Virus record (IMG/VR): IMGVR_UViG_3300037307_000543
Coordinates: 3,138 to 67,137 of that record
Reading direction: 5' to 3' (one strand)
Length of the DNA stretch: 64,000 bases
DNA from: a virus
The position numbers and the translations under genes were made by a program. This document shows, one piece after another, positions 644 to 19,160 of this stretch; position 1 is the first letter of the stretch; each line of letters opens with the position of its first letter. Under the pieces are notes generated by a model. The model did not search any database. It saw nothing but the letters and a program-made list of their open reading frames with translations, and was not told where the DNA came from.

Positions 644-669
644 GGTATCACCTTCTGATTTTTTCTGGG

Positions 670-698
670 AGGATAAGGCCAAACCTTCTTGAGGTCAA
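670..698 (-). promoter_or_regulatory. sigma70-type promoter
   Basis: TTGACC-17 bp-TATCCT on the minus strand, upstream of the 643 start. Confidence 0.55.
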
Positions 699-705
699 GA
701 ATTTT

Positions 706-736
706 CGGATGTGGAGTCAAAATGGCTCCACATCCG
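706..736. other. Intergenic hairpin
   Basis: CGGATGTGGAGTCA-AAA-TGGCTCCACATCCG inverted repeat. Confidence 0.55.
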
Positions 737-749
737 GGTTTGAGGAGAA

Positions 750-783
750 AAAGTCATGAAGCTAAAAATAGCTTCATGACTTT
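750..783. repeat. Dispersed palindrome copy 1 (may also act as a terminator)
   Basis: AAAGTCATGAAGCTA-AAAA-TAGCTTCATGACTTT just after the 786 stop; followed by a T-run on the minus strand. Confidence 0.85.
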
Positions 784-785
784 GG

Positions 786-1319
786 TTACGCGGACACCCA
801 GGTTATCGCAAGCTCAGTTGCGTTTGCCGGGAAGCCACGATAGAGCTTCCCAAGGATCAGGATCGCTGAAAAAGTGGCATTCCCACCGGCCGCAACTGCA
901 CGAAGGCTGATGTATCGCTGAATGACCGCGGCGTTTGAGCTTGTCACCACGCGAGCATAGGACTCGTCGAACACGTGGCCGAAGTCAAACTCCGCCATAT
1001 AGAGCCCTGCCGCGCTGATAGCTGCCAACGAGAAAGCAGCGTTGCTGTTCGCGTCGCCGTTCGAGTTGGTCAGAGCCGCATCGTCATCCCGAAGAGAAAG
1101 GGTCAGTGTGCCAGCCGTAAGTCCAGACACGTCTGCCACAATTACCCCTTTCGTGGGTTTGATGAATGAGCTGCTGGAATCAAGCCACGAATCAATGCTC
1201 GCACCAAGTTGGGCGGTGTTGTAGCTGTTGATCGTGCTGCCAGCAGTAAGAGTATTAGCAGGAATGAGCCGTCGAATGCTCAGACCGCTCAAGAGTTCAT
1301 GTCTTCCGTCCATTCCCAT
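786..1319 (-). CDS. Putative capsid decoration/minor head protein
   Basis: Small, beta-rich, Ala/Ser/Thr-rich ORF immediately downstream of the major capsid gene; call is by position only. Confidence 0.5.
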   Translation of the reverse strand: MGMDGRHELLSGLSIRRLIPANTLTAGSTINSYNTAQLGASIDSWLDSSSSFIKPTKGVIVADVSGLTAGTLTLSLRDDDAALTNSNGDANSNAAFSLAAISAAGLYMAEFDFGHVFDESYARVVTSSNAAVIQRYISLRAVAAGGNATFSAILILGKLYRGFPANATELAITWVSA

Positions 1320-1332
1320 CGTAACACCTCAC

Positions 1333-2667
1333 TTAGGACATATTCGGATCTGCGGTTGACTGGAGCACTACGAACGCCTTCTCCTGCTCGCAGATTCCAC
1401 CAACACGCGCCGAGGCGCGGAAAGCGGTCATGTTCTGCAAGAAGTAAACGTGTCGGCTCATTTCCACGGAGATCGTCTTGCGCTCTCCAATGAAATAATG
1501 TTTCCAGTCGCCAAGAATCACGTCGCCAGTCGTGCCGAGATCACTCGTGCGGTAGTCCGACATCACGATAGGAATGCCTGCGGCGAATCCGGCAACGCCT
1601 TCGCCAAAGTTATTGTACCCGTAACCTACGTCGATGACGGGTCGCCCGTTTTCGTCAACTTCCTTGCGGAGGTTGTTGAAAACCGCCTTCTTCATAAACC
1701 ACACCGCGTTCGCATCGAACATGGGCGGCAATAGACTGTGCATGTTGAGACAGTCGCGCCATCCTACCCGGTTCGCGCTGATGCGGTCACAGGTGATAAT
1801 GTTGGGAGTATTCAACAGGCCCAGCGGCTGTGAGCCGCCAAGACCGGTGATGAACGACTTGTCGGTGCCATACCAGTACGCTCCCTGGAAGAGCTGTACA
1901 AGCAAGTTGCCGATGTTGATCGCACTGTCAGCAAGAAGCTGATCAGTAATCGGGGTCGATGCAGAGACCTCGTAGCACTTCAGGGTAAGGAACTCGAACT
2001 CCGCCGTGGTGTTCGGCTTTACCCCGCCTTCAGAGGTCCACCGAAGCTCCACGTTACCGAAGAAGTTTTCGCTTCCCTGAGTAAGGTCCTGCTTGAGTTT
2101 AGGCCACTGAATCTCGTCAGTAGCCATAGGCCACACCTGAGCACGCGGCCATACGATGGTCCCCGGAGGAGCGAACTGGAGCATCGCATAGCGGATATCT
2201 TCAGGGACAAAGAGGCCCGCAGAGCTGTCGTCCGCCGACCGCATCGCGGTCGTCATGTCGGTGAGCGTATCCTTCGTGACAATCTGAACGCTATCGCCCT
2301 TTGTCACGAAACGGATTGTCTGACCAGAACGCGCCGCGCCGCGAAGTTTCGCCGCAAACTCGATCATCGGCTCCGAAGCGGTCTCGAAAAATCCTGACTG
2401 ACGCCGCAGCCCCTTCGTGCTGATGTTGTACATCCCAGCATTGACGATAGCTCCCTCGGGAAGCCGATACTGGTCCTCTCCAACCTGCTGGAGAGTACCG
2501 TCGTCAACGACCCCTTTGACACTATGAATCGTTTGAGGAACCGCCTTCTGAAGCTCGGTGATCTTGGTGTTGATGTCCTCAAGCATCCCTTTGGTCTTGA
2601 TCTCAACCTGATCACCGACCGTCTTAGCGAGCATTTCCTCGAACTTTTTCTTGGTAACCTCGTCCAT
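1333..2667 (-). CDS. HK97-fold major capsid protein with N-terminal delta (scaffold) domain
   Basis: AGLFVPEDI, WTSEGGVKP, QPLGLLN, ILGDWKHYFIGER, FRASARVGG motifs; about 130-aa N-terminal extension ending FVTK-G/IVTK-D. Confidence 0.93.
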   Translation of the reverse strand: MDEVTKKKFEEMLAKTVGDQVEIKTKGMLEDINTKITELQKAVPQTIHSVKGVVDDGTLQQVGEDQYRLPEGAIVNAGMYNISTKGLRRQSGFFETASEPMIEFAAKLRGAARSGQTIRFVTKGDSVQIVTKDTLTDMTTAMRSADDSSAGLFVPEDIRYAMLQFAPPGTIVWPRAQVWPMATDEIQWPKLKQDLTQGSENFFGNVELRWTSEGGVKPNTTAEFEFLTLKCYEVSASTPITDQLLADSAINIGNLLVQLFQGAYWYGTDKSFITGLGGSQPLGLLNTPNIITCDRISANRVGWRDCLNMHSLLPPMFDANAVWFMKKAVFNNLRKEVDENGRPVIDVGYGYNNFGEGVAGFAAGIPIVMSDYRTSDLGTTGDVILGDWKHYFIGERKTISVEMSRHVYFLQNMTAFRASARVGGICEQEKAFVVLQSTADPNMS

Positions 2668-2686
2668 TTTGTACCTCGCAACTATG

Positions 2687-4444: not shown

Positions 4445-4782
4445 CGGGGTTCCTCCTCTTTGTTCTTCTTATCTTCCAATTCGGGTTCCCCTACAATCTT
4501 GTCCAAATACGTATATGGGCAATCCGGGTCTTGACACTGAGCGATCCTTTCTTCAGTAGCCTTTCTCTTGCATTTCGGACAAATACTTCCGATTTGCTCT
4601 TTGGAGAACAGGCCCGCGGACCTATCGTTCCCGGCGCTCATGTATCCAGAAGTCGTTGATGTGTCAATGGATTTTTCTTCAACATTAACAGAGTCGCCTT
4701 TCATCCATATTGGTGCGAACAGCCAAAAATCTGGAACCAACGAAACAAACGGTTTATCTTTTACAGCATCAGAAAAACTCAT
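4441..4782 (-). CDS. Small Cys4 zinc-ribbon-like protein
   Basis: Likely start at ATG 4782 (ATGA overlap with the upstream stop); CPKC...CQDPDCPY. Confidence 0.6.
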   Translation of the reverse strand: MSFSDAVKDKPFVSLVPDFWLFAPIWMKGDSVNVEEKSIDTSTTSGYMSAGNDRSAGLFSKEQIGSICPKCKRKATEERIAQCQDPDCPYTYLDKIVGEPELEDKKNKEEEPR

Positions 4783-7700
4783 AACTTTATTCCCCTTTCT
4801 GATAAAACAGAACACCATTCAGATTGGCTTGCTAACCGATAAATATCCCTTGAATTTTTTATGCCTTCAACAGCAAAGACCTCTTCTGCCGGTATTCCGT
4901 TAAAAATTTGGCCAAAAAGTCCAGGTAGCGTTATCAATTCAAATTCTGCAACTTCTCCGTTGTCTTCTTTAGTCGTAATTACTATTCTTTTTTGAATAAA
5001 TCCTTTCTGATTTTCAACCACCCTAACATAATCATCCGATAATTTCCCAAATTGGCCTTCAAGTTGTGGAAATCGAGACATTCCAAATTCACCATAATCA
5101 AAGTCTACTACTTTAACGTCGGAAATTATCCCACTACTTTTCGTATCAATCCCAGTCGAAGGATGTATATATCTGACCGAAAACTTCTTGCCCTTTAACT
5201 CTAAACCTGCTTTAACAAAATCGGCCTCTGTTTTCTTAAGGATTTGCCTTGCGCCTGGAGTATTGAGCAGGGTCAATGCGTGACCCCACTCGTGCATAAG
5301 GAGTTCTTTTGGTCCCCCCATAGAATCAATTACCTTTACGGCTTCTGGAAAATTATAATTAACCAAATTTATATTAAGGGTGTTTTTATGACCAATAAAC
5401 GCAATTTGATTTCCAAGCGCTGAATCAAGACTCCCTCCATAATCCACTTCGTCTCTTATCACGATTTTTACTGGGCCTGGACTTTCTAAATGGCCAAATT
5501 GCCTCATAAGGTCTTTTTGAAATCCCAATGGATTGTTTATATAATCTATCACTTTTGCTTTTTCCGGAAAACGCCTTCTATATGTTTTGATATTGAAATT
5601 CTTAATTTCATTAAATACTTTAATATCAAGAATAGATTGTGCAGTAGTGGTGGCATTTTTTCCAATTGCACTTCCAGACAGTACACCAATCGCAATTTTT
5701 TGGGCTTTTGATGTATTTCCTCCTGCTCTCGCGAATATATTCGAGTTCCTCAATATCTTATAGGCCCCAACAGATAAAGCTACTCCCCCAATAACGACCA
5801 CTCCCCCTACTATTTTCTTCGTCTTATCAGACATTATAACATCAGACGCAACACCTTCCTGTACGCTATTCTTGTCTCTGAATTTTCCATCCCGGTGTCT
5901 CGGGTGTTCAGATTCAACAAATTCCTCTTTAGACATTTCCTTCTTTACAATATCTTCTTCTCCAGGCCCATTTTTCACTAATTTAACTTGATTCCTCAAT
6001 GCGGAATAGACATCGTTCAAAACATCCAATACCGCCTCAAATCTCGTATGCCCAGGAAGAGCGTTTTCTATCGCGATCTTGCAAGCATCAGAGCAATCAA
6101 CCAAGTCGTCTATAAACACCTCGGCCATTGCGGTAGCGAGATCGTCAGCAGACGGAGCACGCCCCTGCAAAGGCTTCTCTTCTTCGTTCATCCCCTTTGT
6201 TATAAATTCAACAAATCCCTTCTTTGTTCCCTCCCTTATTTGTGCGTCGTACTCCCCGTACCACTCATCGTCCCCTCGTTTCGTTTCCTGCTTTTTGATT
6301 TCTTCCTGTAAAATTTTACCAGCTTCCGCTAGATTTTCTATGTCTTTTTTATGCTTTGGGTTTTTGATATATTCGACAAGGGCTTGAGCGGTCACTTGAT
6401 GAAGTTTCTTATCGTCCTTCATCAAATCTAAAAGTATTGCAGTCACTCTTGGATCATGAGCCTTAAAACCCCTTCTTGCAAATTCTTCTTGTAATGCTGC
6501 AAGCGCAAGGTTTGGAAGATATCTTTCTATAGTTGCCAAAAGAGATCTATAAAGCGGAACCGCTCCTTCCATTTCCCTACGAAGATGTTCGCCAACCAAC
6601 TTTGAAACAAGTCTCTCTTGAATATCCTGCTGGAATCCTTGTGCCGTATATGCTTCTGCTCTTCTTCTTTCTTTTTCCGCCAAAGCTCTTTCATACTTCG
6701 TCCATTCCGCGAGGTTTGGCTTTTCCTGCTTCTCCGCCTTTCCTTCCTCTTTCCGAAGAGCAGTCGATATCGCCTCTTTTTCTTTTTTCGATGACGTAAC
6801 TTCTTTCACGAAATTCATAATATCTTTGTGAAAATAAAACGCAGTTCCAGCAGCTCCCGTAGTAGCCCCAATTCCTGCCCAAGCCCTCACACTAAATGGG
6901 GGGATCACTTTCTCCATAAAGAAGTCTCCCAATGCTCCCCAATCGGAAGGAATTCGATCAGGTTTGTTCGGATCAAGTCTTCCGAGAGCCTTATCATACT
7001 CGTTTATTTCGTCTGGAGTATATGGAGTATAAATATAGTCTGGAATGATACCGTGCTTCCTCGTAAACTCTAAGTCTCCATTGCTTTTCCTTATTACAAT
7101 GCCATGACCCTCAAGCCAAGCGTTGGTTTTCGCCTCTATAGCTTTTGCAGTAACAAGTTTTTTGTTCTTCAACATCTCTGGAGTAACATCGTTCGAGATC
7201 TCAACCGCGTGTCTTTCCGCCTTCGTAATCGTATCCGCAAGGTCAGGCTTCAGAACGATTCGCCTTCCTCTCCATTCAAAAGGAAGCAATGGATCAGTAG
7301 ATTCCTTCGGAACAAGTTCAAGAATCTTCCTTTGTAGTTTTCCATCTTTGTTCCAATACGCTCTTTCCCACGCAGAAGTCAAAAGATCCTCAACCTGAAC
7401 TTTTCCGTTTCTTCCAACAAATACTATTCCAGTGTCTCCATCAAGAGAACCTTGCCTTGGCCTCCAATTCATCAAATCTTGTTTCACTTTGGTATTGACA
7501 AATGCCCCTTTACCAGGACCATAAATCGTTCCCTCAAGACCATATCCTCTCAATGTAGGCCCAAGACGATAGGCTCTTATTGCCTTTCCTCCAGTCTTTC
7601 CTTTCAGTTTCGCAACCGCACTTGCTATCCATCTATTAAGAAAATTAACCTGTTTCGCATCAATAGTGCCCCAACTCGTAAACGGACCAATTTTCGCAGA

Positions 7701-10700
7701 TTGAATCAGTTCCGCTGCAACAACCTCTCCCATCGCAAACTTGTTTATTGCGGAAAGCCGCCTCACTTGAGCAATTTCTCCAGTTCCCTTACCGCCACGT
7801 ATGATTTCTTTTGCCGCGGTTTTGGAAATATCTACGGCTCGAAAGAACTTATTGGGAATATATCTCGGTCTCTTCCAAAATATCGCGGCAAGAGTAGCCG
7901 CTCCAGCAAGAGTGGCGCCAGCAAGAAGGATCTTCGCAACCGCCCTATCTTCATCACTTACATTATCGCTTCTGTACTTTTTCCACGCGTCTGCAACGGC
8001 CTTATGTTTCTGGACTTCCTCATTAAACTTACTCAGACTCGCATCCATTATTCCATGAGCGTCTTTTGCGTTCACAGGAGATTGTTCTACAACTCCACTT
8101 GACGTTCTTGCTCTGTTGTAACTACTCCTAAGAGCATTCGCCATATCTTCCCGTTCTTTATCCATATACTTCACAGGATCGTCCATATAAAGAATCCAGT
8201 CCGGTTTTCCTAATCTGTAAGCATCTGCCCTGATCTTTTCTTTAACTTTCGCCTCGCTCATGCCCGGATTCTCGGCCTTGTACTTCTCTGTAAGTCTCTG
8301 CACAGCTTGAGGAGCTTTCTTGGGCATTCTCCCAGCCCCAGCACGAACTCCACCATGACTAGCGACAAACTTGGTTGCCCTTTTTGGAGCCGTTGTCGTT
8401 ACACCTGTGCCTGCCTTAACAAACTCTCCACCCCTCTCAGATCCCGCTGGAGCCCGAGGATGTTCGCGAGGATCAAATTCTTCCTTGGTCATCTCCTTGC
8501 CAACAAAATCAGCAAAGCCTTTCTCCAGCTTCTTTTTGGCCTCACTTCCTGCAACTACGGCTCCACCAACCGCGCCAGTTGCAATAACAGCCTTTGGAAG
8601 CGGACGCATTTTTTCAAGCTCTTCCGGTTTGATCCACTTATCAGAACCGGCGGGAAGCACTACGTCAGCAAATTTCTTGCTAGACAAAAGATCTTTAGGG
8701 TAGAGAAGGGCGCTTTCTTTTTTGAACTTGCCCCTAAACGCTTCTCCACCATAATTCTTGTACAATTCAGCAACCGTTCCGGCACAAATCACTCTATCGT
8801 CCTTCACAATGGCAGTAAAAAGAGAGCCTGTTATCGGGTCTGCCAATCTATCAACAACGAGATCTGGTCTTTCGCGAGCCATAGCCAGCGTCGTTGGTTG
8901 TTCTTGATCAAAAGTAAACCGAATTCCGCTCTGTTTCTCGTTTAGTGCATCTTCAATAATCCTCTCCCCCATTGCTTTCTTATCGCTCAGGCTCATTACC
9001 TCCTTTTTTGGTCTGAGAATAAGTGATATTGCGTCTGGTGTGGATCTTGGATAATCTTTGACTGAAAGAACCAGCCTGCCTTTCTCTCCTGACGTGGCTT
9101 GGGCAACCACAAACTTGCCCATGTGTTGACCAACAATCCCCCTACCAGCAAGAAAATCATCAAAGTCACTAACATATTTAGCTCTGTCTTTTACATCATT
9201 CCAAAAGAGTTTTTTCTGTTTATTCGTCTTAAATTTCAGATCCCCAACTCTATCCAATTCTCTACTCACAATTGTCTCAATTTTTTCTCCTTCATAACTC
9301 GTTAAGATTTCGTCGATATACTTCTTGTTCTCCATGTACTTCTTTATATTGAGATCGTTAACGACTACTCGCTTCCCTTCCTGTCCGAACATGTTCACAA
9401 AAAGATCTCTCGCTCTTTTGTGACGAACTCCCCCAGACATATAAGCCTCAACCATCTTTTTGTGCATATTTTGATCATACGTTCCAACAATCATGCTAGA
9501 ATGAGAATATGATCCCCCATTAACCGCCTTTGCAAAAACCTCTCTCAATCTCCGCCTCGCTGTCTCATCTCCTTTCGCAACGTGTTTGTACGTATCTCCA
9601 ATCAGATCTTCAATTCCATCATAAGGTCTGCTTCCCCAAATAAAAACATCCCCCGGTTGAGCTTGATTTCTCCAAGCAGCTTTGGCCTCCGGAGTCAGCC
9701 CATCCCACGGAACCATCTTTTTCGCCGCATCTGAATAGATAGTCTTTATTAGCCTTCCACCAACCCGTGCCGTAGCAAAAATCAATGGAGCAGAAGCTAT
9801 CCCTAAGCCAACAAGAGCTGTCTTTCCCTTATTCGCCCTTATCCACCGCACAACACCCTTCTTCTCTTCTTCACTCAGTTCTCTCGACTTACCCGGCTGA
9901 ACAACAGATGAACTCACAGTTCTGTATTTTACCGCCTTCGGCTTCTCCACCTCCTTCACCTTCTTTGGACTCATGCTCTGAGTAACAGACTTCGGTCCTA
10001 CCGTAGAAGGCTTCGCTGCTTCTCCCTTTGGACGAAACTTTCCATCGGCATGTCTGGGATGCTCCGCTTCCTCGAACTGCGCTTCGGTCATACCCTTCCC
10101 GATGAAAGCAGCAAAGCCTTTCTCTTCTACAAGATCCTTTATCTCATCGGTTATTTGTTGATACTGGTTGCTAAGATCCTTGTACTCTGGTATCTTATCG
10201 GCGCCTACTTCAACACCCTTCTCAAGCGCATCAGCAATAATATCAAGCGTGTCTGTAAGCGTTTGGACCTGATTTTCTGTATCAATCCCCTTTCGTCTTA
10301 TTCTGTCGGCCACTCCATACATCCCAGCCACAATCCAGTCCTTAAGTTTTTCCTTCGCGGCCTGAACCATGCCTTGACCGATCTGCGTTCTCGTCAGAAA
10401 GAGATAGCCAGCGGCGGCTCCGCCAAGCCTCAGTCCCCACTTCTTTGCCCACTCCGCCCATGAATCCTTGTCTTTCACCTGTTGAAGTGAAGACAAAATC
10501 TCTTGTTGGTTGCGAAGTATAGCATCCATCTGAGCTTGAGGAACGTTCACCGCGACGTTTGAGGTTCCGCCCATAGCGGTTATAGACGGTCCACCGGTCA
10601 ATGAGTGCCACAACTGAGGCCCATACTGAGAGGCATAAACAAGGCCCGCTCCCTTCGTCACGAAGCCGTAGAAGCTTTCTTCTTTCTCCTTTTCTTTGAT

Positions 10701-11294
10701 CCACTCTTTAACGATCATCTCAATTTTGCTCTTGTTGCCCTTCGCGTCAAACATCTTGATCACGACACCAGCAACCTGATTCCCTTTGTTCAAGTTATCG
10801 ACAAGCGCCCTTCTATTGGAGGGAATCGCAAGAGCAGAGATCTCGACAAGCTCCACTTCGTGATAGAGCTTCTTCACTCTTCTCCCGTTGGCGGTCTTGA
10901 GAGCGTCTGAAGGAATCTTGTTCAGGCTTGGATTCTCTTCGACCACCACGGGAACAAATCCGGCGGAGAACCCCCTGAGACAGCCTTCATGAAAAAGCGT
11001 CAGAAGCTCGTCGCCAGTCTGAGTATTGGCAAGCTGGAACTTGGCCCATATCCCGTCGTCTCTGAACTGCATATCAACACACTTTCCAATGGGCCTGGAT
11101 TTGTGCTGATGAGCTTCGATGAAGACAGGATAGGACATGTAGACCCCGATGTGCTTCTCGAACGCTCCAGGCATAACGATTTCGCCGTCCCTATCGACTT
11201 CAGGACGGGAGACGTACCCGGAGACCGTTCTTTGTTCAAGGTCTACGTCGGGAAGAAAATCATCTTCCCATTTGAAAGGTTTGGTAGTGAACAA
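4779..11294 (-). CDS. HK97-family prohead protease fused to a roughly 2000-aa multi-module extension
   Basis: N-terminal VSGYVS..VDRDGE, AHQH..PIGK, LRGFSAGF, ELVEISAL (His/Ser/Glu of the U35/S78 protease); downstream permuted papain-like motifs and HEWGH. Confidence 0.88.
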   Translation of the reverse strand: MFTTKPFKWEDDFLPDVDLEQRTVSGYVSRPEVDRDGEIVMPGAFEKHIGVYMSYPVFIEAHQHKSRPIGKCVDMQFRDDGIWAKFQLANTQTGDELLTLFHEGCLRGFSAGFVPVVVEENPSLNKIPSDALKTANGRRVKKLYHEVELVEISALAIPSNRRALVDNLNKGNQVAGVVIKMFDAKGNKSKIEMIVKEWIKEKEKEESFYGFVTKGAGLVYASQYGPQLWHSLTGGPSITAMGGTSNVAVNVPQAQMDAILRNQQEILSSLQQVKDKDSWAEWAKKWGLRLGGAAAGYLFLTRTQIGQGMVQAAKEKLKDWIVAGMYGVADRIRRKGIDTENQVQTLTDTLDIIADALEKGVEVGADKIPEYKDLSNQYQQITDEIKDLVEEKGFAAFIGKGMTEAQFEEAEHPRHADGKFRPKGEAAKPSTVGPKSVTQSMSPKKVKEVEKPKAVKYRTVSSSVVQPGKSRELSEEEKKGVVRWIRANKGKTALVGLGIASAPLIFATARVGGRLIKTIYSDAAKKMVPWDGLTPEAKAAWRNQAQPGDVFIWGSRPYDGIEDLIGDTYKHVAKGDETARRRLREVFAKAVNGGSYSHSSMIVGTYDQNMHKKMVEAYMSGGVRHKRARDLFVNMFGQEGKRVVVNDLNIKKYMENKKYIDEILTSYEGEKIETIVSRELDRVGDLKFKTNKQKKLFWNDVKDRAKYVSDFDDFLAGRGIVGQHMGKFVVAQATSGEKGRLVLSVKDYPRSTPDAISLILRPKKEVMSLSDKKAMGERIIEDALNEKQSGIRFTFDQEQPTTLAMARERPDLVVDRLADPITGSLFTAIVKDDRVICAGTVAELYKNYGGEAFRGKFKKESALLYPKDLLSSKKFADVVLPAGSDKWIKPEELEKMRPLPKAVIATGAVGGAVVAGSEAKKKLEKGFADFVGKEMTKEEFDPREHPRAPAGSERGGEFVKAGTGVTTTAPKRATKFVASHGGVRAGAGRMPKKAPQAVQRLTEKYKAENPGMSEAKVKEKIRADAYRLGKPDWILYMDDPVKYMDKEREDMANALRSSYNRARTSSGVVEQSPVNAKDAHGIMDASLSKFNEEVQKHKAVADAWKKYRSDNVSDEDRAVAKILLAGATLAGAATLAAIFWKRPRYIPNKFFRAVDISKTAAKEIIRGGKGTGEIAQVRRLSAINKFAMGEVVAAELIQSAKIGPFTSWGTIDAKQVNFLNRWIASAVAKLKGKTGGKAIRAYRLGPTLRGYGLEGTIYGPGKGAFVNTKVKQDLMNWRPRQGSLDGDTGIVFVGRNGKVQVEDLLTSAWERAYWNKDGKLQRKILELVPKESTDPLLPFEWRGRRIVLKPDLADTITKAERHAVEISNDVTPEMLKNKKLVTAKAIEAKTNAWLEGHGIVIRKSNGDLEFTRKHGIIPDYIYTPYTPDEINEYDKALGRLDPNKPDRIPSDWGALGDFFMEKVIPPFSVRAWAGIGATTGAAGTAFYFHKDIMNFVKEVTSSKKEKEAISTALRKEEGKAEKQEKPNLAEWTKYERALAEKERRRAEAYTAQGFQQDIQERLVSKLVGEHLRREMEGAVPLYRSLLATIERYLPNLALAALQEEFARRGFKAHDPRVTAILLDLMKDDKKLHQVTAQALVEYIKNPKHKKDIENLAEAGKILQEEIKKQETKRGDDEWYGEYDAQIREGTKKGFVEFITKGMNEEEKPLQGRAPSADDLATAMAEVFIDDLVDCSDACKIAIENALPGHTRFEAVLDVLNDVYSALRNQVKLVKNGPGEEDIVKKEMSKEEFVESEHPRHRDGKFRDKNSVQEGVASDVIMSDKTKKIVGGVVVIGGVALSVGAYKILRNSNIFARAGGNTSKAQKIAIGVLSGSAIGKNATTTAQSILDIKVFNEIKNFNIKTYRRRFPEKAKVIDYINNPLGFQKDLMRQFGHLESPGPVKIVIRDEVDYGGSLDSALGNQIAFIGHKNTLNINLVNYNFPEAVKVIDSMGGPKELLMHEWGHALTLLNTPGARQILKKTEADFVKAGLELKGKKFSVRYIHPSTGIDTKSSGIISDVKVVDFDYGEFGMSRFPQLEGQFGKLSDDYVRVVENQKGFIQKRIVITTKEDNGEVAEFELITLPGLFGQIFNGIPAEEVFAVEGIKNSRDIYRLASQSEWCSVLSERGIKL

Positions 11295-12323
11295 TTAATC
11301 CGAACTCCACTTAAGACCAGATCTAAGATATCTTGCGAGTTCTGCCGCCCTTGTAAGCTCCTCTTTCAAAACCTTATCCTTTATTGGTCTCTTCAGTCTG
11401 TCTTCAAGAATATCCAATGATTTTGATGTATTCAAAAGATCCTTTCTTTTTTGAAGAGGAAGAAGACCCGTTTTGCCCATATTCTTCACCCTTTGAGAAA
11501 GCATCAAAGCCATATCCTTTACGGCAGGACCTGCGGCTTTCTGGATGATTTGAGAAGAGGAAAGACGTTTTTTCCTCCATTGAGTGGGATCAAAATAAGA
11601 AATGTCCCGCTCTGAATCTCTCTTGGCCTTCCTCGGACTATTCTGTTTGGAAAACAACAAGTCACGAGCCTCTCGTTCCGCTTTTACAATCTCTGTTGGA
11701 ATACGTTCTTGATCCAGCGCCTCTCCAAGGCCATGATAAGACGCAACATCATCGTGCAACTTTTTCATTTTTTTTGCAGCCTTTGTATACCCCCTGGAGA
11801 TGGTAAAGCCTCCTTTCTCAACAATCATCGAATCGTCAAGTTCCTTGTATCGTTGACGCAGTTTCCGACTAATAACGTCAGAAATAGACCCAACCCTTTT
11901 TTCCTTTTCTGGAGAGAGTCCGAAACTGGAAAGCGGATTATTAAATTGAGAAAACTTGTCACCAAGAGTTTCTTTCATTCTGTCAACCGCGCTGATGATA
12001 ATCCGCTTGTCCTTGGGAGAGGTTTTTTTGTATTGTTTCAAAAACTCTCCTGCACCAGAAAGAGGAGAAGCGCTCGCTCTTTTCGCCTCTTGCAAAACCT
12101 CTTTGATCGCTCGTGGAGCTTTCTCAACAATCATCGAATCGTCAAGTTCTTTGGCCTCAATTCCCCACTCCTGCCCTCGCTCGGCCAGCACCTCATCCAG
12201 AGTCTTCCTGGCAGGCTCAACGGAGAATTCCTTTTCAATCAGTTCTTCAGGCTCCATGTTCTTGCACGTTCCGCCCTGAAGATCCATCGTCACAAAGCTT
12301 GCTTTTCCTCTTTTGTCAGACAT
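11295..12323 (-). CDS. Basic head-module protein with two KELDDSMIVEK repeats
   Basis: Likely start at ATG 12323 (AGGAGG upstream); 29-bp identical DNA repeat at 11815-11843 and 12121-12149. Confidence 0.7.
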   Translation of the reverse strand: MSDKRGKASFVTMDLQGGTCKNMEPEELIEKEFSVEPARKTLDEVLAERGQEWGIEAKELDDSMIVEKAPRAIKEVLQEAKRASASPLSGAGEFLKQYKKTSPKDKRIIISAVDRMKETLGDKFSQFNNPLSSFGLSPEKEKRVGSISDVISRKLRQRYKELDDSMIVEKGGFTISRGYTKAAKKMKKLHDDVASYHGLGEALDQERIPTEIVKAEREARDLLFSKQNSPRKAKRDSERDISYFDPTQWRKKRLSSSQIIQKAAGPAVKDMALMLSQRVKNMGKTGLLPLQKRKDLLNTSKSLDILEDRLKRPIKDKVLKEELTRAAELARYLRSGLKWSSD

Positions 12324-12334
12324 TGGAAGCCCTC

Positions 12335-14740
12335 CTAAGATTTCTCCGCCAGGACCGGTCTTCTCACGCACCGACAGTTCGGATGAAGCGTTGCCGATTC
12401 TTTGTACACCTTTCCGGTTCGATAATCCTTCAAAATGGTCCCGTGATTCGCTCTACAATTCTTCTCCGGATTTGAGTCATTACATACCCGCTCATCAAGC
12501 GCAGTCCACAAGACCGCTTTCTCGACAACGATTCTTCCCGCGTCCTTGTTTACTTTCTCAAACGACGCATCAGATCCCACATCCAATGCGCCGGAAAGCT
12601 CAGTTCGAGCAATCATAGACGCCCGCGCGGACCCCATATCAGCAAATTTCTCGCGAATGAGGTCCGCGACATCTTCTACATCCATGCCTTCCTTGAGCCC
12701 CGTCTTAATGATCTTCGTGATGGTTTTCTTAATCGTCCTACTTCTCAGCGTTGCCGACTGGTCGAGAAATCTACCGGCAGCATTGTATGTGGCCTCGTCC
12801 GGAGAAATGCCAAGCATTCCGCCAAGACCTTTCTCCACCAATCTCAGCCCGAAATTAAATCCAATGTCAACCGCCTTCATGATAAACAGACGAGACGATT
12901 CTTTATATTCGTATTCAAACTCATTCAAATCAAAGACTTCATCAGGTTCCTTAGTAACAATACCATTCGCGTTTTTCTTGACAATTTCTGATATCTGTAG
13001 TCCTTTGCCAACGAGAAACTTCTCAGCGACGGGTTTATAGATATTTTCAATAGCCTCAATCGCAGGAAGCATCTCTTCATAGCATTTGTAAACCACTCTC
13101 TCGTCTTCAGGCAGAATCTCTTCAATATATTCATCAATCCCTCTCGTAATAAGCTTCATCAATCCATCTTGAGAAGAAAGCTTTCCAAGATTCTGTGTTG
13201 CAGTCTGGATAGTTGGATTTGCTCGCATAAAAGCGGTCAGTCCTCCACGATTGCCACGAGCCGCATTGATAAGCGTAGAGAGATTGGGCGAGTTTCCCCT
13301 CATGGATTCTTTCAAGAGCCCCATAAGGTCGCCCTCCGGCCTCCCTCCAGTCATTCCAAACTGTCCTTGAAGCGCTGGGGCGCCTCCGCCCATCATGCCA
13401 CCTTGTGCGGCCATAGATGCACCGGCAGCAGCCGCAATGCTTTCATCCCATACCTTGTCCGCCTCTGAGTTGATTCCTCGAATCGGCTGTCCATTCATCC
13501 AAGGAACGTAGCACAGCGGAGAATCGAACGGCTTTTGGCCCCTTCTCAAGCGTATTTCATTGATTGTGGTCAATCCCATAGTCAATTCGCCCTGGTTTTT
13601 AGCAAGTTCCCATTCGTCATCTTTCGGATGAGCCGACTCATAGGTAAAAATAAGGCTCTTCGTGCTCTTAAACTGAGATCTGAGCTGAAGATTTATGCTT
13701 CCGGCAAGCACCTTCAATCGAGGAAGAACCGAATGGTCCACAAAGGTCTTCTCGGCCGCAATATCGGACGCCTTAGATGAAGCCCCCATAAGCCCAAGCA
13801 TAACCTCTGGAACCCCATACGCGGCCAAGATATTATCTTTGGTCCATTCACTCAAAGCCATGAACTCAAAGTCCTTCGCGGACATTCCCACTTGCTCGAT
13901 CTTTGCTTCTCCGGTAAGGACCGCGGGCTTAAACTGTCGCCCTGGCCCGCGATGTTTTGCGTTCCACCCTTCCGAAAGCCGTTCGGCTTGAGCCTTTGGA
14001 ATGGGGTGAGCAGGAACAATCACGAAATCCGGCCTTGCGTTATTCTGAAAAAAATCCTTCTCATAGACCTGAAGATAGAGATCCAAATCAGTGACGTGCG
14101 CCAGGGCTTGAATGGGGGTAAAGGGAAGCACCGGATTCATCGGATTCGGATAGTGGAAATAGACAACATCTTCGTACGGATACTCTCTTCTAAGCTGCTT
14201 CTGATAAGGAGATGCGAACACGAACTTATCAATGAGCCGATCAGTAGAGTTTCCCATCATGATCGTTACCAATTCATTCGGATTCATCAAATAAAGCTCT
14301 CTCGGGGCACCGATTGCATCTCTGATGATAAGCCAAAAAGCACATCCACACAGATCAAGATACATCTGCGTAGCTGCGAAAAACTGCTCTCCGTCAAAGT
14401 ACTTATTTGGCCTTCTCAGAAGCTCCAGGAGGGGGTGATGAAGAATTCGGTCAAACTCTTCATCGTTCGGCTGGCCAACCTCTTTGTACAGATAGAAGGG
14501 AACAGAGGCTACTTTGTTTTTGATCAGATTCACACAGGGATAAACCCAAGTACGATACTTGAGAAGTGCCTGTTGAGCATTAACTGTAGGGTTCAGAGTT
14601 CCAGGATTGGCATTGGAAACAGTAGAAAGCGTTCTCGAATTAAGCTCTTCCCACCCTTTTATTACCACGACGCCTGGATACTCATCAAAAAAATCTCGGT
14701 CTTTGGAAAAGGCGCTTCTCAGGCGATCAAGGAATCCCAT
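12335..14740 (-). CDS. HK97-family portal protein fused to a MuF/SPP1-gp7-like head morphogenesis domain
   Basis: Portal motifs VYPCVNLIKNKVASVP, DVVYFHYPNP, KDFEFMAL, ILAAYGVP; C-terminal ARTELSGA, WTALDERVC, HPNCRC. Confidence 0.9.
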   Translation of the reverse strand: MGFLDRLRSAFSKDRDFFDEYPGVVVIKGWEELNSRTLSTVSNANPGTLNPTVNAQQALLKYRTWVYPCVNLIKNKVASVPFYLYKEVGQPNDEEFDRILHHPLLELLRRPNKYFDGEQFFAATQMYLDLCGCAFWLIIRDAIGAPRELYLMNPNELVTIMMGNSTDRLIDKFVFASPYQKQLRREYPYEDVVYFHYPNPMNPVLPFTPIQALAHVTDLDLYLQVYEKDFFQNNARPDFVIVPAHPIPKAQAERLSEGWNAKHRGPGRQFKPAVLTGEAKIEQVGMSAKDFEFMALSEWTKDNILAAYGVPEVMLGLMGASSKASDIAAEKTFVDHSVLPRLKVLAGSINLQLRSQFKSTKSLIFTYESAHPKDDEWELAKNQGELTMGLTTINEIRLRRGQKPFDSPLCYVPWMNGQPIRGINSEADKVWDESIAAAAGASMAAQGGMMGGGAPALQGQFGMTGGRPEGDLMGLLKESMRGNSPNLSTLINAARGNRGGLTAFMRANPTIQTATQNLGKLSSQDGLMKLITRGIDEYIEEILPEDERVVYKCYEEMLPAIEAIENIYKPVAEKFLVGKGLQISEIVKKNANGIVTKEPDEVFDLNEFEYEYKESSRLFIMKAVDIGFNFGLRLVEKGLGGMLGISPDEATYNAAGRFLDQSATLRSRTIKKTITKIIKTGLKEGMDVEDVADLIREKFADMGSARASMIARTELSGALDVGSDASFEKVNKDAGRIVVEKAVLWTALDERVCNDSNPEKNCRANHGTILKDYRTGKVYKESATLHPNCRCVRRPVLAEKS

Positions 14741-15240
14741 TACTTGTTCCCAAACTCGTCTTTAAGAATCTTCTCAAGGTTGTCATTGTCGTCATCAAGC
14801 TTAAAAGCTGCCTTCTGGAGCAACTCTTCACGCTTCTTGTTCTTTTCGACAATCTTCGTCATCCATGAATCCTGACGAACCAAGCTATTCACAATCTTCT
14901 CTCTAAACGAAGAAAACCCAACAGCAAGATGCCCCACTTCCTCGTCTGGAGGGAGTACTTCGGGCTCTTTCGGACCAAAATCTTCTTCATGAGACACGAC
15001 AGTTTCTCCTTTAATCGTTTTCTCAGACGTTTTCTCGCCCTCTTCGGTGAGTTCGGTCACTACGATGTCTTGAATCTCTTTACAGTGAACAATGACCCCT
15101 CCGGATGGAGTATCGAACGACTCCACTCCGGATTTAGACTCCCGTATCCGTGCTAGAGCGGCTTCGACTTCGCTTTGCTCGCTCATCAGCAAGGACACGG
15201 GAGTATGATTCACGTACTTGAAGGTGAGTCTAAAACTCAC
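14740..15240 (-). CDS. Hypothetical head-module protein
   Basis: Translationally coupled to the portal gene; contains IVEK. Confidence 0.65.
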   Translation of the reverse strand: MSFRLTFKYVNHTPVSLLMSEQSEVEAALARIRESKSGVESFDTPSGGVIVHCKEIQDIVVTELTEEGEKTSEKTIKGETVVSHEEDFGPKEPEVLPPDEEVGHLAVGFSSFREKIVNSLVRQDSWMTKIVEKNKKREELLQKAAFKLDDDNDNLEKILKDEFGNK

Positions 15241-16437
15241 TTACTTCTTGACCTTTCCTTTTGGAACTCTCACGACCGAGGAGCACTTGAAGACGAAATC
15301 CTCTTCGTCAGCACCTTTCTCCTTACGAGTTGCTCTATAGACACCATAGCCGCCAGCGCCAAGAGCAGGAACCGCAGCAATGGCAAGACTCTTCTTGGGA
15401 TTATCCTTAATCCACTGAATTGCGGCTTCAGTTGCAGTTGGAGTGATCTTCCCAAACTGCTTCGAGAGTGCGCGACGAGTCTTGTAGGCAGGGATTCTCC
15501 CACTCTCTCTGCCCCTCAGCCACTCGGACTTCTTCGGAGCAGCGGCCTGAGCATCGCTGATTTCTCGGCTTTTGGTCCCGTAAATGTCGCCCGCAGCGGC
15601 CTTCTCAACGAAATCGGCAAAGCCTTTCTCCTTCCGTCTACTCAAAGCATAGACTCCGCCGCCGATAAGACCAGCCGCACCAAGCCCAGCCGCGCCCGTT
15701 CTGTACGGATGAGCAGCAGCATAACGACCAACAGCTTTTCCGCCTTCGGCCACTTTGCTCGCCGCAGCACGCACCTTCGGCTCGACATAACCCCGTGCCT
15801 TTTGGTACGCGCTTACAATACCCTCTTTGGCCTCACGAGTTTTTCTGCCGACAGGAGTCTCGCCAGGAGTCACTTTGACATCCCCGCCCTCCATCGAAAA
15901 TGTCCGACGAGTAAGATCCTCCTTGACAGGATTCTTCATCTTTTCGACCAAGAGGCTGTCATCAACCTCTTTTGCGACCATCCACTTCGAGTCAGACTCG
16001 CGAAGAGCAAGATGATCCGCTACCGACTTCTCGATAGTGTCGAACGAGCCGTCGATATCGTAGCGAGAAAACGAGTTCTGATCAACCACGAAGCCCTTCT
16101 CAACCATCTGGTTGTAGGACTCCCAACCCTTCTCGATCTCGTTTTTCTCTCCACCGAGATTCTGTGCGTCGGAAACGTAGGTTGCCTCAATGTCCTTTTT
16201 CGCCTCACCAGCTACTTCGGACAGATCATCCGCCATTGTGGTGCCGGGACCACCGGGCTTGTTCTCTCCCGGCTTGATGTTCGCACCACTTCTGTCAACT
16301 CCGGCAGAATCAACTCCGGCAGAATCAGTCACGTCCCGACCAGGATCAGCGGGAAGCGTATCCTCTGCATGACCATCGCCCTTGAAGACACTGAATTCCT
16401 CAAGGAACCCCTTCTGTACCAAGAATTCGTTGCTCAT
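15241..16437 (-). CDS. Head-module polyprotein-like protein with repeated (V/I)EK-G motifs and glycine-rich hydrophobic segments
   Basis: LVQKG, IEKG, MVEKG, KEVDDSLLVEK, EKGFADFVEKA; GAAGLGAAGLIGGG and AVPALGAGGYG segments. Confidence 0.7.
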   Translation of the reverse strand: MSNEFLVQKGFLEEFSVFKGDGHAEDTLPADPGRDVTDSAGVDSAGVDRSGANIKPGENKPGGPGTTMADDLSEVAGEAKKDIEATYVSDAQNLGGEKNEIEKGWESYNQMVEKGFVVDQNSFSRYDIDGSFDTIEKSVADHLALRESDSKWMVAKEVDDSLLVEKMKNPVKEDLTRRTFSMEGGDVKVTPGETPVGRKTREAKEGIVSAYQKARGYVEPKVRAAASKVAEGGKAVGRYAAAHPYRTGAAGLGAAGLIGGGVYALSRRKEKGFADFVEKAAAGDIYGTKSREISDAQAAAPKKSEWLRGRESGRIPAYKTRRALSKQFGKITPTATEAAIQWIKDNPKKSLAIAAVPALGAGGYGVYRATRKEKGADEEDFVFKCSSVVRVPKGKVKK

Positions 16438-16526
16438 TGTCTTTACCTCGCTTTTTCCTTCAAGCAGCCTCTATCGGACCCTCTCCTGAAGTCTCATGCC
16501 TGCCTTAACGGCCCAGCACGATGTTC

Positions 16527-18812
16527 CTAATTCTTCTTTCTCGATCTTTTGCCCATAGCTTCAATTCCGCCATAGTAATAAAGCTTCTTCAAGCCCTTTC
16601 CCACTGGATATTCGTCGTCATCTCCACTCAAACCATAATACAGACCCGCTCCACCAAGAAGAGCCGCACCGCCAAGACCATATTTCATGCCCCTAGAAAG
16701 ATCCTCTTGCGGCTTAGTAGCTTTAGGCAAACTCGGCTTAACCACCGAAGGCGGCTCAAAACGTTCCGCAGAACGAGACGGCGAGGGCGCTGACCTAACA
16801 GGAGAAGTCGGCTTATTCGCCTCTCTCAACTTTCTCGCGTGTTCCGATTGGCGAAAAGCAATCTCTTCTGCTTCATCAAAAACTCCACCGCGGCCTACCC
16901 GAGTTCCCGCCGCACCAGTGCCGGTAACGGCTTCGGCCCCAACAGGAATCTTTGGTTTTCTAGGCTTAAAAATATTCGTCACTTTTCTCAATGCTTGAGG
17001 CCACTTCTCAACAAGTTCATTGGCTACTGTTTCATAACGCGAAACACCCTTAATCATAATAAAGTCTTCACCTTCTATCGGCCTAATGAAGTTTGCCGCT
17101 TCATTCCGAACATATACCTTCCTGTGACCAACAGATCCGGCCCGCTCTCTAGTTCCAGCCGCTCGTTTATAAAGCTCCTGTACCGGTTCCCACTCTCGCG
17201 CTTCCTTTAAGCTCTTTTTATCTACCTTTTTGATGTTAAGTCGCTTTAGCCCTCTCCCACCTAAACCTCCCAAAAGAGCCCCGCTTGCTCCACCCGCCAA
17301 CGCTCCTCCAATAGCCCGAACAGCTTTTCTATCCTGTTCCTTTGTCGAAACATATCCACCGGCTCCTCCCAAGGCGGCCCCTACTCCAGCACCAATTAAG
17401 GCTCCTTTGATCCCCTTTTCCACTATTATAGAATCATCAAGTTCTTTCGCCTTCGTCGGCTTCAGATTCAACTTCGCGTTTCCGTGTCCGGTAGCAGTCT
17501 CCAATATATTCCTCTTAGCAAGAGCGATCCTCTTCGTCTTTGCCTCTGGCATATACGCTTTTTCCTTTTTCTTGTTCTGCTCTTTTATCGCAGCCTTCGG
17601 GGCTCCTTTCGCAGCTCCTTTGGTAAGACCCGTAGCAATTGTTTCAAATCCTATACCCCCCGAGGCCGAGCCTCTCCCGGCTTCCCCAAGGGAACTTCTT
17701 ACTACCTCAAATAGGATTCCTTTCTCTACGATCAAGGAATCATCAAGCTCTTTGACTACAAATTCCTTCTTCTTCAAATACGGCTGTCGCCCCTTTTTAT
17801 ATGCAGCAAGCGCATCGTCAAGTTTCTTTCTATACGCTGCAAGCTCTTCAATATTCGGTTTAGGAATCCTTTTTCCTGACTCATAAAGAGAATCAGCTAT
17901 CAGTTCTTTCGCCGTTTTATCAAAAATTCCTTTTTCTACAATGAGAGAGTCATCGAGTTCTTTAACAACCTGAAGTTTTCTATTCAAGGCCGCTTCTGCC
18001 GCATCATTCGCTCTCCTCATCTTCTCAACATTGGTCAAGGTCCTTTTAATGTTAGCCAATCTTTTAGAGCTATCGTCAAGAGTGGCATTAATCTCTCTCA
18101 TATGAGCAGCATAGCGATCAGCATAGTTAACGACTTCCTTTGCTAAATTAGCCTGTGCCCTTCCGGCACTTGAAATTACCGATCCAGCGCCTCCCACTGA
18201 TGCTCCCAAAGATCCGCCTATAAGAGCGCCCATTGCGGCCCTTTTCAAACGATGTTCTTTTTGTTTCGCGGTAGCCGCTGCGGTTCCAGCCCCACCAACA
18301 GCACCAATTCCGGCACCAATCGATGCAGCTTTTACAGCTCCTTTCTCGACGATGAGAGAGTCATCGAGTTCTTTGGCAACAGCCGCATCTCTCTCCAAAT
18401 ACTTCTTCCCAAGATGTCCAGCCGCGATGCCGCCTCCAACCATGAGTCCATATTTGCCCAATTTTTTCCAATTGATAGGTTTATGTCCAAGGGCGCGTTC
18501 ATAATGTTCTACTGAAGCCTTTGACACGAAGCTTTCTCCTAAAGTGGATTCAGAAACTCGTGTCCCTAAACTAGAATCATTCTCCCCCTTTACTTCAAAA
18601 CCATCCTCTCCTATATCCTTATATACAGGACGCACCCCAAGATCATCCGCGACCTCCTGAAGGCGCGCTTCAAGACTCGTCTCTCTCTTCGCTGGATCGC
18701 GAGTCGAACCTTCGAGAATAGACTCTTTATCAAACTCTTGAACAACAAGTGAAGGCTTCTGATCTACCTTCACCTCGTCCATTACGGCAAATGTGCTTTT
18801 TTCTCGCGGCAT
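16527..18812 (-). CDS. Head-module polyprotein with four KELDDS(L/I)IVEKG repeats and glycine-zipper segments
   Basis: Repeats at about 17413-17447, 17718-17753, 17928-17963 and 18339-18374. Confidence 0.75.
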   Translation of the reverse strand: MPREKSTFAVMDEVKVDQKPSLVVQEFDKESILEGSTRDPAKRETSLEARLQEVADDLGVRPVYKDIGEDGFEVKGENDSSLGTRVSESTLGESFVSKASVEHYERALGHKPINWKKLGKYGLMVGGGIAAGHLGKKYLERDAAVAKELDDSLIVEKGAVKAASIGAGIGAVGGAGTAAATAKQKEHRLKRAAMGALIGGSLGASVGGAGSVISSAGRAQANLAKEVVNYADRYAAHMREINATLDDSSKRLANIKRTLTNVEKMRRANDAAEAALNRKLQVVKELDDSLIVEKGIFDKTAKELIADSLYESGKRIPKPNIEELAAYRKKLDDALAAYKKGRQPYLKKKEFVVKELDDSLIVEKGILFEVVRSSLGEAGRGSASGGIGFETIATGLTKGAAKGAPKAAIKEQNKKKEKAYMPEAKTKRIALAKRNILETATGHGNAKLNLKPTKAKELDDSIIVEKGIKGALIGAGVGAALGGAGGYVSTKEQDRKAVRAIGGALAGGASGALLGGLGGRGLKRLNIKKVDKKSLKEAREWEPVQELYKRAAGTRERAGSVGHRKVYVRNEAANFIRPIEGEDFIMIKGVSRYETVANELVEKWPQALRKVTNIFKPRKPKIPVGAEAVTGTGAAGTRVGRGGVFDEAEEIAFRQSEHARKLREANKPTSPVRSAPSPSRSAERFEPPSVVKPSLPKATKPQEDLSRGMKYGLGGAALLGGAGLYYGLSGDDDEYPVGKGLKKLYYYGGIEAMGKRSRKKN

Positions 18813-18866: not shown

Positions 18867-19160
18867 TTATTCTACGACTTCGACCGGTGTGCCAAGAGTT
18901 TCAGAAACTACTTCTTCAGTGGCCTGCTTCACGGTCTTCTCTATGAACTCATCGAAGGCGAGAAGCTCATCAAGCAACTCTTCTGTTGCGTCTTCTGGCG
19001 CTTTCTTAATCACTGAATACGCAGAAGCAAAGGCTCGTCCTTCGTCTTGATGCTTCTTGTAAGCGCTATTCCAAACATGAACCCACATTCGAGCTTTTTT
19101 TGCTGGAAGTTTCTGGACATTCTCCGGAAGAGAGGAAATATCATCAGGGTTATATGGCAT
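18867..19160 (-). CDS. ChaB-family protein
   Basis: MPYNPDDISSLPENVQKLP..ARMWVHVWNSAY..DEGRAFASAYSVIK fits the ChaB pattern. Confidence 0.8.
   Translation of the reverse strand: MPYNPDDISSLPENVQKLPAKKARMWVHVWNSAYKKHQDEGRAFASAYSVIKKAPEDATEELLDELLAFDEFIEKTVKQATEEVVSETLGTPVEVVE

Follow-up and report, generated by a model that had tools for sequence, protein, structure and literature searches.

A 2171-residue prohead-protease gene of an uncultured phage probably encodes a self-processing polyprotein of capsid cargo

We analysed a 64,000-nucleotide stretch of viral DNA (the window; positions 3,138 to 67,137 of IMG/VR record IMGVR_UViG_3300037307_000543) and in it one gene on the minus strand, at positions 4779..11294, whose product of 2171 amino acids (aa) begins with a prohead protease and continues with a chain of modules, named A to E. 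We consider it fairly probable that this gene encodes a self-processing capsid-cargo polyprotein, in which the protease loads the cargo and then cuts it free. An earlier sequence-only reading of this DNA had proposed that the maturation protease is the carrier of swappable, membrane-anchored and effector-like cargo. The carrier and the swappable modules hold, the effector function and the membrane anchoring are putative, and a self-processed polyprotein fits better than an intact, tethered cargo. The parts that rest on data are the protease domain with its catalytic residues, the enrichment and conservation of a motif ending in lysine, the turnover of the modules among relatives and the fold of module B.

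Judged from its sequence, the part comprising residues 1–180 (10755..11294, minus strand) is an intact HK97-type (S78) prohead serine protease, and presumably the maturation protease of the phage. Pfam Peptidase_S78 matched residues 21–166 with 35.9 bits, above the cut-off of 21 (41.3 bits in a second scan), in accordance with the N-terminal prohead protease of the sequence-only reading. In the alignment with gp4 of phage HK97 (E 8e-11, 27% identity), H62 corresponds to H65 and S110 to S114 of gp4, which we take to be the catalytic residues, and both H62 and S110 are invariant in six homologues. The open reading frame (ORF) is placed between the portal and the major capsid genes, and profile scans found no other S78, ClpP or S49 protease in the record. 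When the whole protein was searched against PHROGs and Pfam, nothing besides S78 was matched; among cultivated phages, tblastn found the protease domain only (28–30% identity) and megablast found nothing. The predicted self-cut is VVIK↓MFD (the arrow marks a candidate scissile bond), after the invariant K180.

The gene has a TTG start and a stop codon at 4779–4781, with no internal stop in 2171 codons. The public gene call P0002 (2131 aa) begins at Met41, 40 codons late, and drops the conserved N-terminus of the protease (11175–11294). Because the homologues align from about residue 12, we regard TTG as the right start; it directly abuts the stop codon of a 358-aa ORF. The extent of the gene given in the sequence-only reading, together with all the positions and motifs named there, was reproduced within a few bases.

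The modules are delimited by a short motif, best read as the protease's own cleavage site, whose core is [FILVM][VI]xK↓ with G, E, D, A or M in the next position. Delimiter lysines were found at residues 214, 400, 933 and 1700 (nucleotides 10653, 10095, 8496 and 6195). The sequence-only reading had placed these four correctly within a few bases; it missed a fifth, IVKK↓EM at K1785, and the motif reads as a cleavage site more than as a linker. Cuts are thus predicted after K180, K214, K400, K933, K1700 and K1785, and K196 and K1330, the latter inside module C, also fit the pattern and are candidates. In homologues that are only 30–40% identical, the lysine preceding the predicted cut (P1) never varies at the A/B and B/C junctions or at K180, where the protease ends. 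In 5809 aa of head proteins we counted 34 motifs, compared with 5.8 ± 2.3 in composition-preserving shuffles (z = 12.1), and the enrichment covers seven head genes, whereas the non-head proteins (8491 aa) contain 7 motifs against 6.8 expected, i.e. background. In the relatives L001, L003 and L011 the same motif is restricted to the head genes.

The major capsid protein, which has the HK97 fold (1333..2667, minus strand), provides an independent anchor for the motif. An invariant T-K↓(G/A) precedes a conserved SxDDSSAGLFVP by 15–25 residues. In the protein of the window the sites read RFVTK↓G (TK123↓G) and IVTK132↓D, and the mature N-terminus expected from HK97 follows shortly after them. HK97 gp5 aligned at this place reads TFNK103-S104LGSDADSAG, where S104 is the mature N-terminus, in agreement with the residue count. 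Since the motif is enriched across the head module and is also present at the maturation site of the capsid protein, we prefer a self-processed polyprotein over an intact tethered carrier.

The layout of the polyprotein follows from these sites. After the protease comes a spacer (aa 181–214; 10653..10754, minus strand as for all the modules) with candidate cuts after K196 and K214 (FYGFVTK↓G); at this protease/A junction, occupied here by the spacer site, relatives carry the EHPR tag described below. Module A (aa 215–400; 10095..10652), which ends in GFAAFIGK↓G (K400), does not vary within the family and contains a conserved Trp/Gly-rich amphipathic helix; we infer that it is the capsid-targeting or carrier part. 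Module B (aa 401–933; 8496..10094) consists of an EHPR tag (aa 411–420), a hydrophobic helix (aa 493–511) and a permuted NlpC/P60 domain (aa 543–884). Module C (aa 934–1700; 6195..8495), the commonest variable module among the relatives, has an EHPR-type tag, EHPRAPAGSERGGEF, a hydrophobic helix (aa 1122–1140) and a second glycine-rich helix. Module D (aa 1701–1785, 85 aa; 5940..6194) is bounded by GFVEFITK↓G and EEDIVKK↓E and is without an EHPR tag, and module E (aa 1786–2171; 4782..5939) has an EHPR tag (aa 1796–1805), a hydrophobic helix (aa 1827–1845) and a zincin-like part. The helices of B, C and E are strong 19-residue Gly-rich hydrophobic segments, one in each module, 40–190 residues past the EHPR motif. 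Such glycine-rich helices had been noticed before, and they also fill the neighbouring 761-, 398- and 358-aa genes. Similarly, the last module had been called AT-richer, which agrees with a G+C content of 0.37–0.40 over 4501–6000 compared with mostly 0.42–0.50 across the rest of the ORF; there is a second dip to 0.39 at 9001–9500.

An exhaustive profile search of 1.84 billion representatives showed that the family is rare, with about 20 members, each of them a singleton cluster from a metagenome. The N-terminal pair of protease and module A is common to all of them, and what varies is the presence and order of modules B to E, as expected from the earlier suggestion of swappable modules behind a constant N-terminus. 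The arrangements found were A-B-C-D (P0003, P0008 and P0009), A-B-E (P0005), A-C (P0012, P0020 and P0007), A-C-D-E (P0015) and A-E (P0032 and P0034); P0006 has an extra module before B, and P0014 is a module B standing alone (409 aa). Module E, when present, is always C-terminal. The motif sites are kept in relatives without modules B and E, e.g. P0007, and as they persist where the papain-like and zincin modules are lacking, the S78 protease is the only constant candidate enzyme for the cuts. In the relative L003, positions 9923–15558 hold two overlapping ORFs in different frames, of 1015 aa (protease-A-E) and 869 aa, and L011 has an additional 896-aa ORF with Lys motifs after the polyprotein; the interval from the protease gene to that of an acidic 585-aa protein has the appearance of a cargo-gene hot spot.

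Module B was confirmed at the level of the fold as a permuted NlpC/P60 (YiiX/C92) domain with the His before the Cys, and its role as a hydrolase is predicted. Its motifs are QPGDVFIWG (aa 546), SYSHSSMIVG (aa 595) and RVICAGTV (aa 834), and G548-D549, H598, C837 and G839 are invariant in nine module B sequences. An AlphaFold2 model based on the nine-sequence alignment (mean predicted local distance difference test, pLDDT, 73.8; predicted template modelling score 0.74) was compared by VIA-align with 48,161 PDB representatives. The top match was E. coli YiiX (2if6; Z 9.4, root-mean-square deviation 3.6, 150/180 residues), followed by a B. cereus cysteine peptidase (3kw0; Z 8.6), and lower down by the type VI secretion system effector TseH (Z 6.2), PLAAT4 (Z 5.4) and the MARTX RID domain (Z 4.8). 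The YiiX-type enzyme proposed from the motif order alone is therefore matched by the fold, with the invariant H598 preceding the invariant C837. The structural match covers model residues 64–405, around a helical insert of about 120 residues. This insert breaks the local alignment; Foldseek against the PDB gave nothing significant for B, 3kw0 coming first at E 1.5. In Pfam, Peptidase_C92 was the commonest sub-threshold match, in three of the nine members (E 0.005–0.13), and module B of this protein did not reach the C92 cut-off (12.8 bits vs 27; E 0.005). C92 and poxvirus G6R-like entries of a viral structure library matched B, and in an ESM-atlas feature search, where all scores were below 0.85 and the matches are leads only, C92/NLPC_P60 were among the named ones. 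PDB sequence-profile searches gave no meaningful match for B, nor for C and E. Relatives include peptidoglycan hydrolases and lipid acyltransferases or phospholipases, and within the permuted NlpC/P60 superfamily module B forms a divergent branch marked by its insert.

Module E is quite likely a zincin-like metallopeptidase, as predicted from the sequence HEWGH at residues 2001–2005 (nucleotides 5280–5294) and its conservation. Six module E sequences share FGH (H1935), HExxH (2001–2005) and a C-terminal SEWxSVxxE(R/K)G, with H2001, E2002, H2005 and E2159/E2166 invariant in all of them. In the model of E (pLDDT 78.5), HExxH and the C-terminal Glu lie on helices, with a beta-barrel inserted between. 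About half of the top 50 VIA matches were zincins (M1, anthrax lethal factor, YbeY, M30, M13, Wss1, PPEP and thermolysin), with Z of only 3.6–5.0, and the inserted barrel matched SH3/Tudor-like domains. AFDB clusters and the ESM atlas gave matches to the beta-barrel insert only, Pfam Zn_peptidase was found at E 0.006 in one of the six members, and a word-based search found no stand-alone relatives of E. For the HExxH metalloprotease of the sequence-only reading, all six homologues keep the HExxH and, in addition, a C-terminal Glu; the structural support for a zincin fold is weak.

EHPR..G.F motifs were located at nucleotides 10035–10064, 8421–8465 and 5880–5909 and nowhere else in the window; these are the three module-start motifs that had been described. 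The predicted cuts would leave the motif about 10 residues from the new N-terminus of B, C and E. A further 38 matches of the profile search covered the linker only, and the proteins concerned carry 2–8 copies of [FW]xExEHPRx(3-8)GxF; the tag is thus common between the modules of large phage proteins of the polyvalent kind. Peptidase_S78 was detected in 11 of the 37 scanned EHPR proteins, all 11 from this clade; others have Peptidase_S78_2, DUF2213 or MuF. Their payloads include ADP-ribosyltransferases, RelA/SpoT, nucleotidyltransferases, 2'-5' RNA ligase, pyrophosphatase, FtsK, topoisomerase IB, GNAT, SMODS and LPD1; in P0044, for example, an N-terminal DUF2213 is followed by the tag and then by an exotoxin domain of the ADP-ribosyltransferase type. 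In proteins from outside this clade no V-x-K stands before the tag, which is therefore independent of the cleavage code. Its role could be docking, an ejection signal or something else. We found no description of the motif in the paper on MuF toxins (PMC5576092) or in that on polyvalent proteins (PMC5512222).

The Lys-ending motif was also found in the head genes upstream of the polyprotein (11295..18812, minus strand), namely the 358-aa ORF, a portal-MuF fusion, and the 398- and 761-aa ORFs; a 166-aa ORF in the same group is without it. The 761-aa ORF (16527-18812, minus strand) is rich in glycine zippers and contains four copies of KELDDSxIVEKG, the 398-aa ORF (15241-16437, minus strand) has one variant KELDDSxIVEK(G/A) and EKGFADFVEK↓A, and the 358-aa ORF (11295-12371, minus strand) has two copies of KELDDSMIVEK. 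None of the three matched a family. In all of them KELDDS(L/M/I)IVEK(G/A) separates Gly/Ala-rich glycine-zipper stretches, and the seven KELDDSxIVEK copies differ at synonymous sites, which indicates selection on the peptide. These three ORFs look like polyproteins, and the Gly/Ala-rich stretches, if cut, may become small membrane-active peptides. The portal-MuF fusion (801 aa; 12335-14740, minus strand) comprises Phage_portal (aa 66–399) and Mu_F (aa 673–792), with FLVGK↓G and GIVTK↓E between both parts and VVIK↓GWEE near the N-terminus; FLVGK↓G and VVIK↓GWEE are conserved in L001 and L003. Such a fusion is also present in the phages of P0004 and P0006, and F(F/L)VxK↓G is kept between portal and MuF in the fusions of three phages.

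The record as a whole is a 67,871-bp IMG/VR viral contig from a freshwater metagenome, about 71% complete according to CheckV, with every gene on the minus strand. In the downstream direction, the order is the 761-, 398- and 166-aa ORFs, the portal-MuF fusion (801 aa), the 358-aa ORF, the 2171-aa ORF, a 125-aa ORF, the 585-aa protein and the HK97-fold major capsid protein, and a replication set (DNA polymerase, helicases, UvsX and SbcCD) is located upstream of the head genes. The 585-aa protein (2687-4444, minus strand), just before the capsid gene, is extremely acidic, with long Glu/Pro runs, VAQREA coiled-coil repeats and Cys clusters, and the 125-aa ORF (4441-4818, minus strand) is Cys-rich with a CxxC...CxxxxC pattern. 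No family was matched by either; both may have zinc ribbons and serve in scaffolding or decoration. The large terminase was seen as a PHROG 2 match of the C-terminal part only (profile positions 474–592) in a 355-aa ORF (20701-22335, minus strand), and it may be split or highly divergent. Just upstream of the head module, the G+C content falls sharply to 0.29–0.36 at 19001–20000, over a 291-aa ORF (19150-20025). Downstream of the capsid gene (record positions 1-3137, L014) the sugar-modifying enzymes are a nucleotide-sugar epimerase and an aminotransferase; relatives have methyltransferases, a sulfotransferase and a hexapeptide transferase in their flanks (L011). Recognisable tail genes were seen neither in these flanks nor in the final 3 kb of the contig, both of which showed only small unknown proteins and sugar-modifying enzymes; the latter may reflect glycosylation of the virion or of the DNA.

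In the mechanism that we propose for the self-processing polyprotein, the protease and module A would co-assemble into the procapsid, as prohead proteases normally do, and modules B to E would be carried in with them at a fixed ratio. Inside, the S78 protease would cut after the Lys of hydrophobic-(V/I)-x-K↓(G/E/D/A/M). At the same motif the N-terminal scaffold domain of the capsid protein would be trimmed, MuF would be separated from the portal and the 761-, 398- and 358-aa glycine-zipper polyproteins would be chopped, and the protease would free itself at K180. The products would be B, a permuted NlpC/P60 cysteine hydrolase of about 59 kDa, C of about 85 kDa, D of 85 aa, and E of about 43 kDa, probably a zincin. 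Small fragments would leave the shell, and the large folded modules, too big to leak, would remain alongside the DNA until their ejection during infection. Their hydrophobic helices would then place them in the membrane of the host, and the targets of the two hydrolases would be either the envelope (its peptidoglycan or lipid) or proteins of the host. Roles in envelope penetration (as an ejectosome) fit both enzyme folds at least as well as effector or toxin roles.

Several points weigh against this interpretation. Cleavage, packaging, ejection and targets are all inferred. The regular expression of the motif was written after the sites had been seen, so that its enrichment is partly post hoc, a concern that the non-head control and the relatives reduce but do not remove. 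The structural matches of module E are weak (Z up to 5.1), and Foldseek searches with E against the PDB, AFDB and the atlas gave nothing significant. To modules A, C and D no fold was assigned, and they had no matches in Pfam, nor did C in the PDB sequence-profile and ESM-atlas searches. Hydrophobic helices are an unusual cargo for a DNA-filled capsid, and the contig is about 71% complete. A complex prediction for the protease (aa 1–185) with linker 1 (aa 380–430) scored 0.00, with a partner pLDDT of about 33, which by itself is evidence neither way.

An intact giant multidomain virion protein, i.e. a classical polyvalent protein that is not cut at the Lys motifs, would have the junctions as docking sites or flexible linkers, and any processing would be done by its own zincin or papain-like domains after ejection. 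Some polyvalent proteins (N4 vRNAP, ArdC and TraC1) do travel uncleaved, and autoprocessing by a metallopeptidase has been proposed (PMC5512222); moreover, many EHPR proteins are without the V-x-K motif upstream of the tag. We nevertheless think this explanation unlikely, given that the Lys motif is found both where the protease domain ends and where the capsid protein is expected to mature, that it is kept in relatives without the zincin and papain-like modules, and that its enrichment reaches seven head genes.

It also seems improbable that the modules are structural, serving as scaffold, inner body or ejectosome channel in assembly and as a trans-envelope conduit, with the enzyme folds vestigial or used solely for local digestion of the wall and not as effectors. 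The Gly-rich hydrophobic helix in each large module and the glycine zippers in which the neighbouring polyproteins are rich would suit such a role, NlpC/P60 enzymes are typically cell-wall hydrolases (compare the match to TseH), and T4- and phiKZ-like phages offer known cases of ejection proteins that undergo processing. However, the capsid protein has its own N-terminal scaffold-type domain of 123 aa and there is the separate acidic 585-aa protein, the turnover of the modules is high for an essential structural core, and the catalytic residues are invariant. This explanation overlaps with the self-processing polyprotein and differs from it only in the role after ejection.

Polymorphic toxins of the MuF type, borne in the head and used by lysogens against competitors, each with an immunity gene, are a much less probable explanation, even though MuF-borne toxins are established (PMC5576092) and EHPR-tagged relatives carry toxin-type domains (ADP-ribosyltransferase and RelA/SpoT). 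The variable modules here are internal as well as C-terminal, and the replication set is of the lytic style. The small ORF after the gene encodes the Cys-rich 125-aa protein, which matched no family, in an analysis with no search aimed at immunity genes or an integrase.

Finally, an assembly chimera, or separate genes joined by sequencing errors, can practically be dismissed: module E is AT-richer, L003 has two ORFs (1015 and 869 aa) in the equivalent region and the Logan contigs of the probable source run break at 8607–8621, but there are 2171 codons without a stop and each junction recurs in independent metagenomes (P0003, P0008, P0009 and P0015). The independent homologues are collinear (P0003, aa 2–1768; P0008, aa 16–1800; P0009, aa 12–1789), which rules out a chimeric assembly, and the D-E junction is reproduced in P0015 (aa 1696–2171). 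The Logan contigs show zero differences from the window wherever they cover the region, with the exception of the 15-base contig break, so the misassembly that the sequence-only reading had named as a possible objection is rejected.

Beyond the self-processing polyprotein itself, we put forward a wider and more tentative idea, which may well prove wrong. In this phage clade the prohead protease would be an address label for capsid cargo, and one Lys code would serve the whole head module, from capsid trimming, MuF detachment and protease release to the conversion of four polyprotein genes into more than 20 internal peptides and enzymes; EHPR..GxF, left by each cut close to the new N-terminus, would be a general cross-family cargo tag for payloads borne by S78, DUF2213, MuF and portal proteins in a wide range of tailed phages. 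Fusing enzymes behind the maturation protease, separated by the protease's own site, would be a simple rule for loading a capsid. If that rule holds, the mature virion proteome of uncultured phages could be read from sequence, the wide spread of EHPR..GxF at module starts would be explained, and a cargo design for packaging into HK97-type capsids would be available. We found no description of an N-terminal prohead-protease cargo fusion in the literature.

The closest concept is that of polyvalent proteins, multi-domain cargo of head proteins, including some with assemblin-like peptidases, which has already been published (Iyer, Burroughs, Anand, de Souza, Aravind 2017, PMC5512222). Like them, the 2171-aa protein is giant, encoded in the head cluster and composed of shuffled enzymatic modules, a zincin being frequent among these, and packaging and delivery along with the DNA are predicted for both. 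It has the two or more disparate shuffled domains by which polyvalent proteins are recognised (S78, C92-like, zincin-like and three further modules), and EHPR-tagged relatives share domains of the polyvalent type (ART-PolyVal, LPD1, RelA/SpoT and nucleotidyltransferase). None of the signature Pfam domains of polyvalent proteins (LPD1-39, MPTase-PolyVal, ART-PolyVal etc.) matched the 2171-aa protein with E of 1 or less; such domains were confined to other proteins with the EHPR tag. Assemblin-like peptidases have been reported only at C-termini (PMC5512222), whereas the constant S78 protease of the present protein stands at the N-terminus, ahead of the constant module A, an arrangement that extends the picture of polyvalent proteins. 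A further difference is the Lys cleavage code, which ties the 2171-aa protein to capsid maturation.

The closest experimental analogue is found in T4, phiKZ and SPN3US, where numerous head proteins share a short consensus at which a single prohead protease cuts them, and where the products stay in the head and are ejected (PMC10052503). In those phages the proteases gp21, gp175 and gp245 are separate proteins of the T4-type family, whereas here an HK97-type protease is covalently fused to the cargo. The three enzymes cut after Glu (L/I-x-E or A/S/G-x-E) and mostly remove N-terminal propeptides. In the protein described here the predicted P1 residue is Lys, and several mature products would arise from one chain.

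In MuF polymorphic toxins, a conserved head-morphogenesis domain is combined with variable C-terminal toxin domains (Jamet et al. 2017, PMC5576092). The common feature is a conserved head domain that carries variable ones, and this phage also has a portal-MuF fusion; the differences are that the carrier is the maturation protease and that several modules follow in series instead of one C-terminal toxin. With HK97 there is homology between gp4 and the protease, and Lys103 of gp5 stands directly before S104, but gp4, with 225 aa, has no cargo, and the protease described here is fused to its cargo. To our knowledge, the extended hydrophobic-V/I-x-K consensus has not been described for HK97 gp4. 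As for the YiiX/C92 and LRAT-type enzymes (2if6, 3kw0, TseH 6v98 and PLAAT4 7zot), module B shares with them the permuted papain-like core, the His before the Cys and the Cys at the N-terminus of a helix; it differs from them by the helical insert of about 120 aa, the N-terminal hydrophobic helix and the EHPR tag, and its sequence similarity to them is sub-threshold.

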